Positions 712 to 64,000 of a stretch of 64,000 bases of DNA are shown piece after piece. The stretch's first letter is position 1; each line of letters starts with the position of its first letter. Position numbers and translations under genes: made by a program. This DNA comes from Escherichia coli (GTDB lineage Bacteria > Pseudomonadota > Gammaproteobacteria > Enterobacterales > Enterobacteriaceae), in assembly GCF_003334335.1 (NCBI RefSeq), contig NZ_QOWQ01000001.1. One strand, 5' to 3'. The notes below the pieces were generated by a model, which was not told the origin of the DNA, did not search any database, and saw only the letters and a list, made by a program, of their open reading frames with translations.

Positions 712-2043
712 TTACCCTAAATCCGCCATCAACACTTTGGATTTACGCTGGTAGTTGTACAACTGCTTTTTGCTCTCGGGCAGTAAATCAATATCCACTG
801 GGGTAAATCCACGTTCCTGGAACCAGTGAATACTGCGCGTGGTCAGCACAAACAATTTGCTTAAGCCGCTCTGCTTCGCCTGAGCGGCAATGCGTTCCAG
901 CAGAACTTCACCCCTTGATGAACTGCGGTAATCCGGGTGAACTGCCACACAGGCCATTTCCCCAATCTTCTCTTCCGGGAACGGATAGAGCGCGGCGCAG
1001 GCAATAGTCGTGTTATCGCGCTGAATAATGGTGAATTTGTCGATTTCCATCTCCAGCTGCTCGCGAGAACGGCGTACCAGAATACCTTGCTGCTCCAGTG
1101 GGCGAATCAACTCCAGAATACCGCCAATATCGTTGATTGTTGCGCGACGAATCTGCTCGGCGCTTTCCATCACAATCTGCGTACCGATACCGTCGCGTGA
1201 GAACAACTCTTGCAACAGCGCGCCATCTTCCTGATAACTGATTAAATGACAGCGACGCACGCCGCTGCGGCAGGCTTTCACTGCGCCACGCAAAAAGCGC
1301 ACCGTACCGGAGTTGTAATCGCCTTTCTCTTCCTGGGCTTCTACCCGCGCTTGCGCTTCGTTAGGGAAAAGTTCGGAGACAATATCACCGTCGTCATTAG
1401 TGACGCCCTGGGAAGAGCAAAAACCAATCATCTTTTCAGCTTTCAGTTTGATGGCCAGTTGAGTGGCAATCTCTTCCGAGGTCAGGTTAAAGCTCTCGCC
1501 AGTGACTGAAACAGCGACCGGCCCCATTAGCACTATTGCACCGCTGTCCAGTTGACGATGGATCGCGTCTTCATCAATCCGCCGGATACGCCCGCTATGG
1601 CAGTAATCCACGCCGTCATCGACGCCCAGCGGCTGGGCAATAATAAAATTGCCACTGACGACGTTGATATGCGCGCCCTGCAGCGGCGTGTTATTGAGAC
1701 TCATCGACAGGCGAGCAGTAATATCCAGTTGCAATGTTCCCGCAGCCTGCTTCACCAGTTCCAGTGTTTTGGCGTCGGTCACACGTATATTCTTGTGATA
1801 CAGCGGTTCGTGGTGATGCGCAGCCAGATTTGCGTCGATCTGCGGACGTGCGCCATAGACCACCACCAGACGGATGCCGAGGCTGTGCAACAACCCGATA
1901 TCATTAACGATACTGGAGAAATTCTCATGCTCAATGGCTTCACCGCCGAGCATGATGACAAACGTTTTTCCCCGGTGGGTATTGATATAGGGAACCGAAT
2001 GGCGGAATCCCTCGACCAACTCGGTTTTACGTTCCTTTACCAC
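712..2043 (-). CDS. argA: N-acetylglutamate synthase
   Basis: ORF 712..2109; recognised N-terminus (M)[33 protein letters not shown], so likely GTG start at 2043 (443 aa); C-terminal GNAT region. Confidence 0.9.
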
Positions 2044-3601: not shown

Positions 3602-3678
<77 letters not shown>

Positions 3679-3887: not shown

Positions 3888-4984
3888 TGAAAGGACGTTG
3901 GGTAAAGTACCTTCTTATGGGCACGGTTGTGGCAATGCTTGCCGCCTGCTCTTCCAAACCAACCGATCGCGGACAGCAATATAAAGACGGGAAATTTACC
4001 CAGCCTTTCTCTCTGGTGAACCAGCCAGATGCCGTTGGCGCGCCGATTAACGCCGGTGATTTTGCCGAGCAAATTAACCATATCCGTAATTCGTCACCGC
4101 GTCTGTATGGCAACCAGAGTAATGTTTATAACGCGGTGCAAGAGTGGCTGCGCGCAGGCGGTGATACCCGCAATATGCGCCAGTTCGGCATTGATGCCTG
4201 GCAGATGGAAGGTGCCGACAACTATGGTAACGTGCAGTTTACCGGTTATTACACGCCGGTAATTCAGGCGCGCCATACCCGCCAGGGCGAGTTCCAGTAT
4301 CCTATTTACCGTATGCCGCCAAAACGTGGTCGTCTGCCGTCTCGTGCGGAGATCTACGCGGGGGCATTGAGTGATAAATATATTCTCGCTTACAGTAACT
4401 CCCTGATGGATAACTTCATTATGGATGTGCAGGGTAGTGGGTATATCGACTTTGGTGATGGCAGTCCGCTTAACTTTTTCAGCTATGCAGGGAAAAACGG
4501 TCATGCCTATCGCAGCATTGGTAAGGTGCTGATCGACCGTGGCGAAGTGAAAAAAGAAGATATGTCGATGCAGGCGATTCGTCACTGGGGCGAAACACAC
4601 AGTGAAGCCGAGGTTCGCGAGCTGCTGGAACAGAACCCGTCTTTCGTCTTCTTTAAACCGCAATCTTTTGCTCCGGTGAAAGGGGCAAGTGCGGTGCCGC
4701 TGGTTGGTCGCGCGTCAGTTGCCTCTGATCGTTCCATTATTCCGCCAGGTACTACCTTGCTGGCAGAAGTGCCGTTGCTGGATAATAACGGCAAATTTAA
4801 TGGTCAGTACGAACTGCGTCTGATGGTGGCGCTGGATGTCGGTGGTGCAATCAAAGGCCAACACTTCGATATCTATCAAGGGATCGGGCCGGAAGCCGGA
4901 CACCGCGCAGGTTGGTACAACCACTATGGACGTGTCTGGGTGCTGAAAACCGCCCCGGGCGCAGGTAACGTCTTTAGCGGCTGA
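3888..4984 (+). CDS. mltA: Membrane-bound lytic murein transglycosylase A (lipoprotein)
   Basis: Real start MKGRWVKYLLMGTVVAMLAACSS (lipobox LAAC) inside the longer artefactual ORF 3458..4984; 365 aa. Confidence 0.9.
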
Positions 4985-5067: not shown

Positions 5068-5175
5068 TTCATGCCGGATGCGGCGTGAACGCCTTATCCG
5101 GCCTACAAATCATGCAAATCCAAAATATTGCAGGAGTTATGTAGGCCTGATAAGCGTAGCGCATCAGGCATTTAT
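5068..5175. repeat. REP (repetitive extragenic palindrome) pair, BIME-like
   Basis: gccggatgcggcgtgaacgccttatccggcctaca and inverted tgtaggcctgataagcgtagcgcatcaggca between mltA and tcdA. Confidence 0.75.
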
Positions 5176-5222: not shown

Positions 5223-6029
5223 ATGTCTGTGGTAATTAGTGATGCATGGCGTCAGCGTTTTGGTGGCACAGCGCGTCTGTATGGTGAAAAAGCGTTGCAA
5301 CTGTTTGCTGACGCGCATATTTGTGTGGTTGGTATCGGTGGTGTCGGTTCCTGGGCGGCGGAAGCGCTGGCGCGCACGGGGATTGGCGCAATCACGCTTA
5401 TCGATATGGATGATGTGTGCGTCACCAATACCAATCGGCAAATTCATGCCCTGCGCGATAACGTTGGGCTGGCAAAAGCGGAAGTTATGGCGGAGCGTAT
5501 TCGCCAGATTAACCCGGAGTGCCGTGTAACGGTGGTGGATGATTTCGTGACGCCGGATAACGTAGCGCAGTATATGAGCGTGGGTTATTCGTACGTGATT
5601 GATGCCATTGATAGTGTACGGCCCAAAGCGGCGCTGATTGCTTATTGTCGGCGCAATAAAATCCCACTGGTCACAACCGGTGGCGCGGGTGGGCAGATTG
5701 ATCCGACGCAGATTCAGGTTACCGATCTGGCGAAAACGATTCAGGACCCGCTGGCGGCGAAGTTGCGCGAGCGCCTGAAAAGCGATTTTGGCGTAGTGAA
5801 AAACAGTAAAGGTAAGCTCGGCGTGGATTGCGTGTTTTCTACTGAAGCGCTGGTGTACCCGCAGTCAGACGGTACGGTGTGTGCGATGAAAGCCACGGCA
5901 GAAGGGCCGAAGCGGATGGATTGTGCATCTGGATTTGGCGCGGCAACGATGGTGACCGCCACCTTTGGGTTTGTTGCGGTTTCTCATGCGCTGAAGAAGA
6001 TGATGGCGAAAGCGGCGCGTCAGGGTTAA
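5223..6029 (+). CDS. tcdA: tRNA threonylcarbamoyladenosine dehydratase (CsdL/TcdA), ThiF/MoeB-like E1 fold
   Basis: 268 aa; Rossmann motif VVGIGGVGSWAAEALARTGIG; position next to csdE-csdA. Confidence 0.9.
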   Translation: MSVVISDAWRQRFGGTARLYGEKALQLFADAHICVVGIGGVGSWAAEALARTGIGAITLIDMDDVCVTNTNRQIHALRDNVGLAKAEVMAERIRQINPECRVTVVDDFVTPDNVAQYMSVGYSYVIDAIDSVRPKAALIAYCRRNKIPLVTTGGAGGQIDPTQIQVTDLAKTIQDPLAAKLRERLKSDFGVVKNSKGKLGVDCVFSTEALVYPQSDGTVCAMKATAEGPKRMDCASGFGAATMVTATFGFVAVSHALKKMMAKAARQG

Positions 6030-6079: not shown

Positions 6080-6523
6080 TTAAACCTGCTTCGTCGCAGC
6101 GATAATCGCCTCGCTTAACGCATTTAACCCCTGGCTGCGTGAGGCGCTAAGCTGCGCACGTAATCCCAGCTCATCAAACAATGCCAGTGGTGACTGTGCC
6201 TGCAACTCGGCGGCGGTTTTCCCCTCAACGGCAGTCAACAACACCGCCAGCAGGCCGCGCACAATGCGCCCTTCGCTGTCGCCAAAGAAATGCATTTTGC
6301 CGTTTTCAGCCACTGTATATCCCAGCCAGACGCGGTTTTCGCATCCGGCAATCTCTTTAGCCTGCGCTTTTAACTCGTCTGGCAATGCCGGAAGCTGTTT
6401 CCCCAGCATGATCAACTGGCGATATTTATCTTCCCATTGCGTCAACGGTGCGAAGGTATTGCGTAACGTTTCTGCGGTTACGGTTGTGCCGAACGGATGT
6501 CCGGCGAATTGCGGGTTTGTCAT
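6080..6523 (-). CDS. csdE: Sulfur acceptor protein CsdE (SufE-like)
   Basis: 147 aa, [20 protein letters not shown]..., SufE-like; directly downstream of csdA. Confidence 0.9.
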
Positions 6524-7728
6524 TAATCCACCAATAATTCCAGCGCGCGGTCAACGGCATTCACCAGCGCATCCACATCACTCTTTGTATTATATGGCGC
6601 AAAAGAGGCGCGCAGTGTGCCGGTTACGCCTAATTCTGCCAGTAGCGGCTGAGCGCAATGCTGCCCGGCCCGCAGGGCAATACCGTACTCCGCCAGCAGC
6701 GTCACCATATCGCTATGATGAACGCCAGCAAAATCAAAGGCCAGCAGGCTGGAATCCTGGCAGCGGAATGAACGAAAGCCGGGACGTTTCGCCAGCGCAT
6801 CTTCCGCCAGCGTTGCTAAGCTACGGCTCCAGCTTTCGGCCTGGTTGATATCGTAATCTGCCAGCCATTCCAGCGCCGCGCTTAATCCTATGACACCAGC
6901 GACATTTGGCGTTCCAGCTTCCAGTTTCCACGGCGCAGATTGAGTCGTGAAGCCGTCAAAACTCACTTCGTGAACCATTTTGCCGCCGCCCAGCCAGGGC
7001 GACATCGCCTCCAGCAGTTCTGATTTACCATACAGCACGCCGATACCTGTCGGGCCATACAGTTTGTGACCTGAAAAAGCATAGAAATCAATATCCAGTT
7101 GCTGAACATCCGCGGGGAAATGCACTGCCCCCTGAGCACCATCAACCATCACCACCATCCCGGCTGAATGAGCAAAGGTAATCGCTCGCGCCAGATCCGG
7201 GCAACCGCCAGTAACGTTCGACATCTGACCCAACGCCAGAATCCGACTACGGGGAGTAATCAGTTCTGGCAACAAATCGACATCCGGCAGTCGCTGCGCA
7301 TTAAGCGGCAATTTCACCACTTTGGCTCCAGTTTGTTGGGCGACCATCAGCCAGGGGACGAGGTTGGCGTGGTGTTCTGCCACGCTGACAATAATCTCAT
7401 CGCCCGGTTGCAGACGCGGACGCGCATAGCATTGTGCCACCATGTTGATGGATTCAGTGGTGCCGCGCGTCCAGACGATAGTTTTATCATCCGGTGCATT
7501 CAGTAATTGCGCCACTTTCTCTCGTGCAGCTTCATAACGCGCGGTCAGGCGTTGGGCTTCGGCAAACTGGCTGCGATGGACGTTTCCGGCGCTCAGACTG
7601 TAAAACTGTTGGGTGGCTTCAACCACGGCTTCAGGTTTAAGCGCGGTCGCGGCGCTGTCGAGATAGACGCCCGCATCCTGTAGTGCGGGAAACTGGGCGC
7701 GAAACTGCGCGGGATTAAAAACGTTCAT
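6523..7728 (-). CDS. csdA: Cysteine sulfinate desulfinase / cysteine desulfurase CsdA (PLP-dependent)
   Basis: ORF 6523..7764; recognised start [16 protein letters not shown] at 7728 (401 aa); class V aminotransferase motifs ([12 protein letters not shown]). Confidence 0.9.
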
Positions 7729-7916
7729 GGTACTCCTCGGCTTGATGCACCGATCGTGACGCAAAATTCACTTTGATACAAGGAGAGTGCTAACCATCAG
7801 AATTATCTGGATATCCTGGCGAAGCCGCGTAAGTAACATATGCTGAATAGTGTTAGGCGTTAATTTTAGCCTGTTAATCAATACTATTAAGATTTATTAA
7901 TCGCTTTAAGGAGAAG

Positions 7917-8163: not shown

Positions 8164-8369
8164 AAAAAAAAGCACCGCAATTAGGCGGTGCTACATTAAT
8201 CACTATGGACAGACAGGGTAAATGTACAGGAAGTGAAAAAAGGTAGCTTTGCTACCATGGTCTGAATCGCAGACCAATTGCAAACACAACAACACAACAT
8301 CACAACCGTAAGCCAAAAGTTCACCAGAACACGCATTCCGATAAAACTTTTCGTTCCGGCTCAGGAAGT
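8164..8369 (-). ncRNA. gcvB: GcvB small regulatory RNA (Hfq-dependent), divergent from gcvA
   Basis: Reverse complement reads ACTTCCTGAGCCGGAACGAAAAGTTTTATCGGAATGCGTGTTCTGGTGAACTTTTGGCTTACGGTTGTGATGTTGTGTTGTTGTG...GCACCGCCTAATTGCGGTGCTTTTTTTT; G/U-rich target-binding region and terminal hairpin with U-run. Confidence 0.85.
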
Positions 8370-26540: not shown

Positions 26541-26907
26541 GTCGACAGGGAGTCAGACAACGAAGTGAACATCAGGATGATGACACTTCTGCAGGACACA
26601 CCAGGATGGTGTTTCAGGGAAAGGCTTCTGGATGAAGCGAAGAGGATGACGCAGGACGCGTTAAAGGACACCTCCAGGATGGAGAATGAGAACCGGTCAG
26701 GATGATTCGGTGGGTCAGGAAGGCCAGGGACACTTCAGGATGAAGTATCACATCGGGGTGGTGTGAGCAGGAAGCAATAGTTCAGGATGAACGATTGGCC
26801 GCAAGGCCAGAGGAAAAGTTGTCAAGGATGAGCAGGGAGCAACAAAAGTAGCTGGAATGCTGCGAAACGAACCGGGAGCGCTGTGAATACAGTGCTCCCT
26901 TTTTTTA
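26541..26907 (+). ncRNA. csrB: CsrB regulatory RNA (CsrA-sequestering)
   Basis: About 367 nt with no long ORF; many CAGGA(U)G / AGGA hairpin-loop motifs (caggatgatg, accaggatggtg, tccaggatggag, tcaggatgattc, ttcaggatgaag, ttcaggatgaac, aaggatgagc); ends in terminator gggagcgctgtgaatacagtgctccc + T7. Confidence 0.9.
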
Positions 26908-26951
26908 TTCCTGCTATCCTTCGCGGCAGTTTTTCTTATTGAGGTTGCTTT

Positions 26952-62751: not shown

Positions 62752-63486
62752 ATGTCCAAACTCGATCTAAACGCCCTGAACGAACTGCCGAAGGTAGATC
62801 GCATTCTGGCGCTGGCGGAAACTAACGCCCAACTGGAAAAACTGGACGCTGAAGGCCGCGTAGCCTGGGCGCTGGATAATCTGCCCGGTGAATATGTGCT
62901 TTCTTCCAGCTTCGGCATTCAGGCGGCGGTGAGCCTGCATCTGGTGAATCAGATTCGGCCGGATATTCCAGTGATCCTCACCGATACCGGTTATCTGTTT
63001 CCGGAAACCTACCGCTTTATTGACGAGTTAACGGACAAACTCAAGCTCAACCTGAAAGTGTACCGTGCTACCGAAAGCGCCGCCTGGCAGGAAGCACGCT
63101 ACGGCAAACTGTGGGAACAGGGCGTTGAAGGCATTGAAAAGTACAATGACATCAACAAAGTCGAACCGATGAACCGGGCGCTGAAAGAACTTAACGCGCA
63201 AACCTGGTTTGCTGGCCTGCGCCGCGAACAATCCGGCAGCCGCGCCAATTTACCGGTGCTGGCAATTCAGCGTGGCGTATTTAAAGTGCTGCCGATTATC
63301 GACTGGGATAACCGAACTATTTATCAGTACCTGCAAAAACATGGCCTGAAATATCACCCATTATGGGATGAAGGATATTTATCGGTCGGTGATACCCATA
63401 CAACCCGTAAATGGGAACCTGGCATGTCGGAAGAAGAAACACGTTTCTTTGGCTTAAAAAGGGAATGTGGATTGCACGAAGGGTAA
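62752..63486 (+). CDS. cysH: Phosphoadenosine phosphosulfate (PAPS) reductase
   Basis: Real start [65 protein letters not shown] inside ORF 62599..63486 (244 aa); C-terminal ECGLH. Confidence 0.9.
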
Positions 63487-63652
63487 ATATTGCCGGATAA
63501 ATTAAACGCCTCTGTCAGAAATGATGGGGGCGTTTTTATTTTGCGAGCAGTATTCCTGATTTTAAACGTGAACGCCGCTGGAAGAATTATCAGGTATAGA
63601 ATGGCGTCGGGTGCTTGAGGCTGTCTGGCGTTAAGCATTCGCGAGGTTCCAG

Positions 63653-63757
63653 ATGGACAAAAGCCCCAGGCGATATTTCTATCAACCTGAGGCTTACGTT
63701 CGAACCCAAACAATTCGAATGTTAGTCTCTTCTTTGCAGGGAGGCAAGACATGCTGA
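63653..63757 (+). CDS. Mok-like upstream coupling ORF (34 codons) overlapping the hok-like start
   Basis: atg at 63653 to tga at 63755-63757 ([34 protein letters not shown]); stop overlaps the hok-like ATG (acATGcTGA); arrangement typical of hok/sok loci. Confidence 0.4.
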
Positions 63758-63903
63758 CAAAATATGCCCTTGTGGCAATCATAGTGCTGTGTTTTACAGT
63801 ACTGGGATTCACGCTGATGGTAGGCGACTCGTTGTGTGAGTTGAGTATCAGAGAACGTGGTATGGAGTTTAAGGCAGTTCTCGCTTACGAATCGAAGAAG
63901 TAG
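63751..63903 (+). CDS. Hok-family small membrane toxin (50 aa), below the size cut-off of the ORF track
   Basis: [50 protein letters not shown]: N-terminal TM helix, conserved Cys plus C-terminal AYES(K) motif as in Hok/Gef; preceded by GGAGG at about 63741. Confidence 0.7.
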
Positions 63904-64000
63904 CCACCACGCGGGGGTAAAACCCATAAGCGCTAACTTAAGGGTTGAACCATCTGAAGAATGCGACGCCTCGGTGCCTCGTTAAGACGATGCCTCGCGT

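Follow-up and report, generated by a model that had tools for sequence, protein, structure and literature searches.

The hokX/sokX locus beside cysH in an Escherichia coli genome is an IS186-interrupted allele with an intact Hok toxin frame

Introduction

In the hok/sok/mok system of plasmid R1, pairing between the tac and fbi elements keeps the full-length hok mRNA untranslatable, and mutations that weaken its last 3′ stem-loop abolish toxicity (PMC9841398). The Escherichia coli chromosome carries related loci, and hokX/sokX is the literature name of the sixth of them (PMC7232551). About 90% of uropathogenic strains carry hok and sokX beside cysH, and the remainder, which are K-12-like, carry sokX only (PMC12736100); in E. 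coli B, hokX has been described as “inactivated by an insertion element” (PMC7232551). Here we analyze hokX/sokX in a 64,000-nucleotide stretch of E. coli DNA (RefSeq assembly GCF_003334335.1, contig NZ_QOWQ01000001.1; hereafter the window), where it occupies the last positions, 63487 to 64000. A first-pass annotation, made from the letters of the window, had pointed there to a Hok-family open reading frame (ORF) downstream of cysH and to a coupled ORF upstream of it. The locus at cysH has already been described and is neither new nor overlooked.

We consider it very probable that the window ends in a type I hokX/sokX locus, situated between cysH and cas3 or iap, in an allele that is interrupted by the insertion sequence (IS) element IS186, still codes for the toxin, and has most likely lost its delayed-killer function. 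With R1 hok/sok/mok it shares a Hok-family toxin, a leader of the same Rfam family, and an antisense RNA with a 5′ tail and a hairpin, and in uninterrupted hokX alleles the likeness extends to a predicted tac-fbi fold-back and a GC-rich 3′ stem-loop. Unlike R1, hokX is chromosomal and lacks a start codon where mok canonically begins, and the window allele has lost both fbi and the 3′ stem-loop to IS186.

Results

An intact Hok frame downstream of cysH

Inspection of the sequence and of the ORF list confirmed a 50-codon ORF at 63751..63903 and a 34-codon ORF at 63653..63757, both on the plus strand. The first-pass annotation had ascribed Hok/Gef architecture to the 50-codon product, and this assignment held: the 50-residue protein matches the Pfam family HOK_GEF (PF01848) over the entire model (positions 1-42 of 42, E=3.5e-11), its leader matches Rfam RF01794 at 113 bits, and it is 78% identical to K-12 HokE. 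Identity to the K-12 paralogs HokA and HokC is lower (50% and 39%), and hokE and hokX are about 85% identical as DNA. In an alignment with HokE, HokC, and HokA, the invariant columns C14, T16, L28-C29-E30, and A45 are all kept, so that HokX has the hallmarks of a small (~50 aa) HOK_GEF membrane toxin, including the conserved Cys14, the L-C-E motif, and an A-Y/C motif near the C-terminus. RefSeq lists the ORF as WP_000956460.1, “Hok/Gef family protein”, and PADLOC returned no match. By analogy, HokX would be toxic and would be repressed by a Sok RNA; 42 of 45 Hok coding sequences were toxic when overexpressed (preprint 10.1101/2025.08.07.668861).

Could the frame instead be a chance opening, or the decayed remnant of a pseudogene without coding function, as at the K-12 site? 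K-12 does keep a mere remnant at this position, and HokX scores below the curated NCBIfam cut-offs (given below). Comparison of eight hokX alleles, the window included, with up to 7% divergence speaks to this point. Seven of the eight encode the identical Hok protein (WP_000956458.1) despite flanking DNA that is up to 7% apart, and the window differs by C15F alone. Because nine differences within the hok ORF are synonymous and one is a replacement, the toxin is under purifying selection. Together with the full-length Pfam match and the retention of the Hok cysteines and the LCE motif, this conservation pattern effectively refutes a chance or pseudogene origin, which we regard as vanishingly improbable. 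The ORF at 63751..63903, annotated on Pfam, RefSeq, paralog-alignment, and allele-difference evidence as the hokX toxin coding sequence (50 aa, frame intact), is a real toxin gene missed by some annotation tracks.

The single replacement among the ten differences, C15F, places Phe15 (TTT, window 63794) where the seven other alleles have Cys15. We considered whether it marks relaxed selection after the IS insertion and rejected this idea. Because Phe is the native residue 15 in K-12 HokA, and because a junction query found the 100%-identical Phe15 ORF also in genomes without the window’s IS186 junction, C15F is a benign polymorphism.

IS186 splits the 3′ end of hokX

IS186 starts at 63925, 21 nt past the hok stop codon and inside the GC hairpin GCGGGG-N6-CCCCGC. 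The window contains its first 76 nt (63925..64000, minus strand; named IS421 by PGAP), beginning with the terminal inverted repeat CATAAGCGCTAACTTAAGGGTTG, and the element continues beyond the window edge. Its full extent is visible in strain 602354, which is identical to the window over 63487-64000 and in which the hok ORF is followed by an IS4-family “IS421” transposase and then by cas3. There the element measures 1339 bp (extract 6439-7777), differs from K-12 IS186A by one mismatch, and is flanked on both sides by GGGTAAAACC. The left copy of this 10-bp target duplication lies at 63915-63924 (plus strand) in the window, and both junctions and both copies are seen in strain 602354. The element has the family, size, and ends of IS186: it belongs to the IS4 family, is ~1.34 kb long, has 23-bp inverted repeats and a 10-bp duplication in a G-run/C-run target, and encodes an InsL transposase. 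The transposase gene (WP_001300563.1) is on the minus strand, convergent with hok.

The empty site, as found in an O26:H11 strain, reads TAG-ccaccac-GCGGGGGTAAAACCCCGC-gtactg...GGTCTCCTGCACCCTTTTTT. In the window, IS186 cuts into the protective 3′ GC stem-loop of the hok mRNA, GCGGGGGTAAAACCCCGC, following ...AAAACC at 63924, so that its left half (GCGGGGGTAAAACC) remains at 63911..63924 on the plus strand. The fbi element (GGTCTCCTGCACCC) is found past the window edge, on the far side of IS186 and 1.34 kb downstream; in strain 602354, fbi together with the T-run reads GGTCTCCTGCACCCTTTTTT and is followed by cas3. By megablast, most genomes match the window only to 63925. The first-pass annotation had spoken of an apparently intact toxin frame and had suggested looking for an IS element or a 3′ truncation beyond the window edge. 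An IS element is indeed present, starting already inside the window, and it takes away the 3′ stem-loop and fbi. The hokX locus of the window is thus not intact, and its toxin frame is; the strain carries an IS186-interrupted hokX allele, which ought to be left out of counts of intact toxin-antitoxin systems.

Leader and antisense RNA

The hok mRNA 5′ leader (63609..63766, plus strand) matches Rfam RF01794 with 113 bits, well above the gathering score of 59, over model positions 1-157 of 157 and ends at the hok AUG; a structured hok leader is therefore present. RF01794 is named “sok antitoxin”, and it matches the sense strand of the hok mRNA; in K-12 the strand that it matches is that of hokC/mokC (extract 1702-1854, minus strand), with sokC annotated opposite. 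Despite its name, RF01794 thus models the hok leader, and its matches mark a hok leader rather than a Sok RNA. Within the leader, on the plus strand, lie the tac element GGGUGCUUGAGGC (63609-63621), the family’s mok Shine-Dalgarno (SD) sequence GAGG (63689-92), and the hok SD GGGAGG (63739-44). A putative hok promoter was read from the sequence as a -10 box, TAGAAT, at 63597..63602 (plus strand), 7 nt 5′ of the predicted +1 and with no good -35 box; this -10 box is invariant in the eight alleles although its flanks vary.

The statement in the first-pass annotation that K-12 is annotated at this site with the small RNA sokX alone proved correct: NC_000913.3 has the ncRNA sokX (b4701) between cysH and cas3. 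Its prediction of a Sok-type antisense gene on the minus strand over the upstream region was likewise borne out. Mapped by its offset from the cysH stop codon, K-12 sokX (2887353-2887411) corresponds to window 63711->63653, giving a 59-nt sokX gene at 63653..63711 on the minus strand. The predicted fold of SokX comprises a single-stranded 5′ tail, the hairpin GCCUCAGGUUGAUAGAAAUAUCGCCUGGGGC, and a terminal UUUUGU (-28.5 kcal/mol, z = -4.6). A putative sokX promoter at 63719..63747 (minus strand), also read by eye, consists of a -35 box TTGCCT (63747->63742), a 17-nt spacer, and a -10 box TAACAT (63724->63719). It lies 7 nt before the annotated SokX 5′ end, is invariant in the eight alleles, and matches the consensus at 8 of 12 positions. 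The search for minus-strand signals that had been proposed for the antisense RNA yielded a terminator hairpin with its U-run and a putative promoter. With promoter boxes assigned by eye and transcription predicted, sokX appears to be a cis-antisense gene with its own promoter and a terminator hairpin over the leader.

Upstream reading frames

The first-pass annotation had also proposed that the 34-codon ORF ends in a stop codon overlapping the hok ATG, as mok does in hok/sok systems. The two frames do overlap, by 7 nt, but their stop and start share no bases: in the sequence ATGCTGA, the upstream TGA (63755-57) falls 1 nt past the hok ATG (63751-53). The identification of this ORF as mok fared worse. 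The 34-codon frame runs through uninterrupted in the leaders of the window, O26, and K-12, and in six of the eight hokX alleles a 1-nt deletion, or a C->T change that creates a TAA, stops it after 18 codons, 40-41 nt short of the hok ATG. The allele alignment thus shows the 34-codon ORF (63653..63757, plus strand) to be a lineage-specific fusion of an 18-codon and a 12-codon ORF, of which only the last 12 codons are invariant. The canonical mok start is also absent. The K-12 mokC AUG corresponds to RF01794 model positions 97-99, just after the conserved GAGGC at 84-88; at the mokC AUG position hokX has GAA, and no ATG, GTG, or TTG start is found there.

A functional role for the 34-codon ORF would require that translation from ATG 63653, served by the SD GAGG at 63643-46, be blocked by SokX and otherwise feed ribosomes to the hok ATG. 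Several features fit such a scheme: the leaders of the window, O26, and K-12 all keep the frame open, GAGG stands 6 nt before the ATG, SokX is complementary to exactly the first 59 nt of the ORF with the ATG included, and hokE too has a long upstream ORF over the Sok target region. Yet the six alleles with the 18-codon stop encode 100% identical Hok, GAGG is changed to AAGG in one allele and codon 2 in another, ATG 63653 lies outside the family consensus at that model position, and the ATG sits in a predicted stem with an unpaired probability of 0.03-0.23. We therefore hold it improbable that this ORF serves as mok; its status as a conserved mok is not supported by the alleles compared, and annotation of the long frame as a gene should be avoided.

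The better candidate for a coupling frame, on sequence grounds the best one, is the conserved 12-codon leader ORF at 63719..63757 (plus strand; 12 aa), which is invariant in 8/8 alleles; in one of them its TGA is replaced by TAA, leaving Leu2 of hok unchanged. hokX may then be a hok variant without a canonical mok, relying on this leader ORF for termination-reinitiation onto hok. In this respect it differs from mokC and hokE, whose upstream AUGs are in frame with hok and give N-terminal extensions, whereas the upstream AUG of hokX is out of frame and its ORF ends at ATGCTGA. The homologous AUG of hokE is in frame since its SD-AUG spacer is 4 nt longer than that of hokX. Three alleles with a 1-nt deletion at window-equivalent 63708 also have a TTG at mRNA position +7, inside tac, that opens a 95-codon frame in phase with hok; this frame through the leader is probably meaningless.

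Predicted mRNA folding and the effect of the insertion

In the uninterrupted hokX transcript, taken from +1 at ~63609 to the T-run, the 5′ end GGGUGC..GAGGCU is predicted to pair with the extreme 3′ end GGUCUC..GCACCC (minimum free energy -130 kcal/mol, z = -3.7). Over nt 1-13, the probabilities of pairing with nt 341 onward add up to 10.9 of 13, and in a natural fbi variant, GGUCUC -> GGCCUC, a G.U pair becomes G-C. By contrast, nt 1-13 are predicted to fold locally both in the 3′-processed RNA and in IS-allele RNAs that end 120, 200, or 300 nt into IS186. Tac-fbi pairing is therefore strongly predicted in uninterrupted alleles and lost from the window allele. Of the hok mRNA fold-back elements against which the first-pass annotation had proposed to align the locus, tac is in place and fbi is cut off by IS186, with tac predicted to fold locally.

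These predictions suggest how the two kinds of allele would behave if hokX follows the R1 paradigm. In uninterrupted alleles, the full-length mRNA would be held closed by pairing of tac at the 5′ end with fbi at the extreme 3′ end, and 3′ trimming to the GC hairpin would open it. The short leader ORF ending at ATGCTGA would then couple ribosomes onto hok, and SokX, by pairing with 63653-63711, would block this coupling and trigger decay. In the window allele, the protective hairpin is split and both fbi and the terminator are shifted 1.34 kb by IS186, from which it follows that transcripts would run into the element. K-12 gef (hokC), with IS186 at the same place and in the same orientation, is a precedent: there the insertion reportedly breaks up fbi, and the transcript stops within the IS, ~200 nt beyond the stop codon (PMC3562002). 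Transcripts of the window allele would form no inert reservoir; they would fold as the open form and be exposed at once to SokX and to exonucleases. The first-pass annotation had named absence of the mRNA elements needed for activation as grounds for calling the locus inactive, and because the 3′ stem-loop and fbi have been removed, the locus is probably inactive in this sense. We conclude that, as a delayed-activation killer module, the window hokX allele has most likely been put out of action.

A contrary possibility is that the IS186 allele still forms a working pair: lacking fbi, the mRNA would be constitutively open, the cell would need SokX at all times, and Hok would be set free once SokX was lost. 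The hok ORF, the leader, sokX, and both putative promoters are untouched, the IS-allele RNAs are predicted to fold as the processed, open form, the ORF is intact in about 650 or more IS-bearing genomes, and nearly all tested Hok coding sequences are toxic on overexpression. In K-12, gef (hokC) with its IS186 is reportedly still transcribed and regulated by Sof (PMC3562002). In R1, however, a weakened 3′ stem-loop is by itself enough for exonucleolytic decay to abolish toxicity, and here the stem is halved; antisense transcription could also come from the convergent IS186 transposase gene, and the literature regards IS-bearing hok loci as inactivated. We consider a working pair unlikely and favor a disabled killer module.

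A number of observations nonetheless weigh against our interpretation of the locus, and we gather them here. Inactivation of the window allele is argued by analogy, and K-12 gef, with the same IS arrangement, is reportedly still transcribed and antisense-regulated (PMC3562002), so that the window allele may keep some activity. The hok ORF shows no decay in the IS-bearing genomes retrieved by the junction query. When the chromosomal, IS-free loci hokA, hokB, and hokC were tested earlier, they did not bring about post-segregational killing (preprint 10.1101/2025.08.07.668861), and a division into active and inactive may therefore not be what separates hokX alleles. A sigma-70 promoter scan with a threshold of 9/12 matches flagged neither the hok nor the sok promoter; both calls are inferred from sequence reading, conservation, and the K-12 sokX 5′ end. 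The Rfam consensus 5′ stem was not reproduced by the thermodynamic folds. As for the 12-codon ORF, its ATGTTA, read on the opposite strand, is the putative sok -10 box, and its ATG has no SD in front of it; because these letters may also serve the sok promoter and an SD is lacking, conservation cannot decide whether this ORF is the coupling frame, and the coupling ORF is uncertain. Lastly, HokX scores under curated NCBIfam cut-offs (HokA equivalog NF007290, 57.7 bits vs 89; Hok subfamily NF007279, 41 vs 73). By the first of these scores HokX is not HokA, and its membership at the family level rests on Pfam, Rfam, and synteny.

Distribution of hokX alleles and recurrence of IS186

A megablast census of 5,426 complete E. 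coli genomes gave a rough picture of how often hokX is disabled. The hokX region is nearly universal: at least 80% of the query was found in 4145/5426 genomes, with the gene annotated as “Hok/Gef family protein”. An empty-site query located the 3′ part of hokX in 4,221 genomes, of which 3,417 are uninterrupted and about 800 are broken at precisely the IS site. With a junction query of 376 nt, we found IS186 in the window’s orientation in roughly 600-700 genomes, including REL606, BL21(DE3), and E. coli C. For the opposite orientation we used a synthetic reversed-IS186 junction, which strain AR_0019 matches at 100% and which puts roughly 150-300 genomes in this class. In rough proportions, ~63% of the complete genomes carry an uninterrupted hokX, ~15% an IS186-interrupted one, and ~22% a K-12-type truncation. 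A shorter, 130-nt junction query had returned 1367 genomes, a count inflated by cross-matches to hokE::IS186; it was set aside in favor of the 374-376-nt junction and empty-site queries.

The insertion of IS186 at hok loci is a pattern known since the 1990s, and IS186 downstream of K-12 hokC and hokE is textbook knowledge. These two are paralogous loci elsewhere on the K-12 chromosome, and in both hokC::IS186A and hokE::IS186B the element sits 21-22 nt past the stop codon within GCGGGGAGTxATCC, a place homologous to that in the window hokX. Its orientation at hokC is that of the window, and at hokE (IS186B) the opposite. Across genomes, IS186 is also seen at hokC, beside a plasmid hokD-like gene, and, in either orientation, at hokE. 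Because it is found in both orientations at hokX and at hokE alike, the hok 3′ GC hairpin (G-run N6 C-run) appears from these sequences to be a recurrent IS186 target. In that the same hairpin is the 3′ stabilizer of the message, its use as a target may make hok loci recurrent, self-inactivating IS186 hot spots.

The window’s IS186 allele is shared with E. coli B, E. coli C, and many wild isolates. E. coli B REL606 encodes the window’s Hok protein (WP_000956460.1), and its IS186 junction is 100% identical to that of the window, but it carries in addition an IS150 in the leader (extract ~583-2022; window-equivalent 63685-87; duplication ACC), just 5′ of the mok SD GAGG. Because of this added element, the window, whose leader is uninterrupted, is not E. 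coli B itself. REL606 is also without cas genes, whereas the closest match to the window, strain 602354, has cas3 after the IS. In K-12 hokA, IS150 occupies an analogous position in the leader rather than one downstream of the ORF.

The K-12 remnant (b4701) has lost a different part of the locus. Up to and including the hok ATG it matches the window at 97.8% identity, over the leader, sokX, and both putative promoters, and it lacks the hok ORF, the hairpin, and fbi, whereas the window keeps the full hok ORF. Homology to K-12 ends exactly after the hok ATG (window 63753/63754; K-12 extract 4267/4268) and gives way to unrelated AT-rich DNA that runs into cas3. The K-12 truncation thus took away precisely the toxin ORF and spared the leader, sokX, and both putative promoters.

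The Tyr46 codon

HokX encodes Cys14 and Cys29, and at position 46 a tyrosine whose UAC codon (63886-88, with the A at 63887) lies within gcUUACGaa. The 24-nt context of this codon differs from that of hokE by 1 nt. In hokE, 40% adenosine-to-inosine (A-to-I) editing by TadA reportedly yields Cys46, a residue implicated in a disulfide needed for toxicity, and a Cys29-Cys46 disulfide is reportedly required for the toxicity of HokB (PMC12214031). By analogy, it is plausible that TadA edits the hokX Tyr46 codon as it does that of hokE, and the full toxicity of HokX may be gated by this editing. As a joint proposal, that a 12-codon leader ORF stands in place of canonical mok, that toxicity is TadA-gated, and that the 3′ hairpin is an IS186 hot spot is tentative, and we think it somewhat doubtful that all three parts hold together. 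Were it true, novelty would be confined to the variant with the leader ORF, the editing, and the recurrence of IS186 at the population scale.

Flanking genes and other features of the window

The upstream neighbor of hokX is cysH (3′-phosphoadenosine-5′-phosphosulfate reductase), at 62752..63486 on the plus strand, as placed by the RefSeq coding sequence of the identical strain 602354 (locus extract 5266-6000, 1:1 with the window). It is followed by an intrinsic terminator with a 14-bp stem and a T-run at 63504..63543 (plus strand), found by a terminator scan of an orthologous locus in which 4018-4049 corresponds to window 63504-63535. This terminator insulates the hok promoter from cysJIH transcription. 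Weak Rfam matches to ctRNA_p42d, Spot42, ncr952, and mir-101 were rejected as candidates, being due to the cysH terminator hairpin (ctRNA and Spot42) or to chance.

Among the seven alleles compared on the other side, cas3 (type I-E) is the next gene past the hok terminator in some genomes, and in others iap follows directly and the cas genes are absent. Beyond the hokX leader, an Rfam scan of the whole window returned ordinary E. coli features alone: CsrB (26550-26909, plus strand), GcvB (8164-8369, minus strand), one tRNA (3605-3678, minus strand), and ES036 (CssrF; 5106-5148, plus strand). hokX itself forms the cysH-side edge of a variable CRISPR-Cas region.

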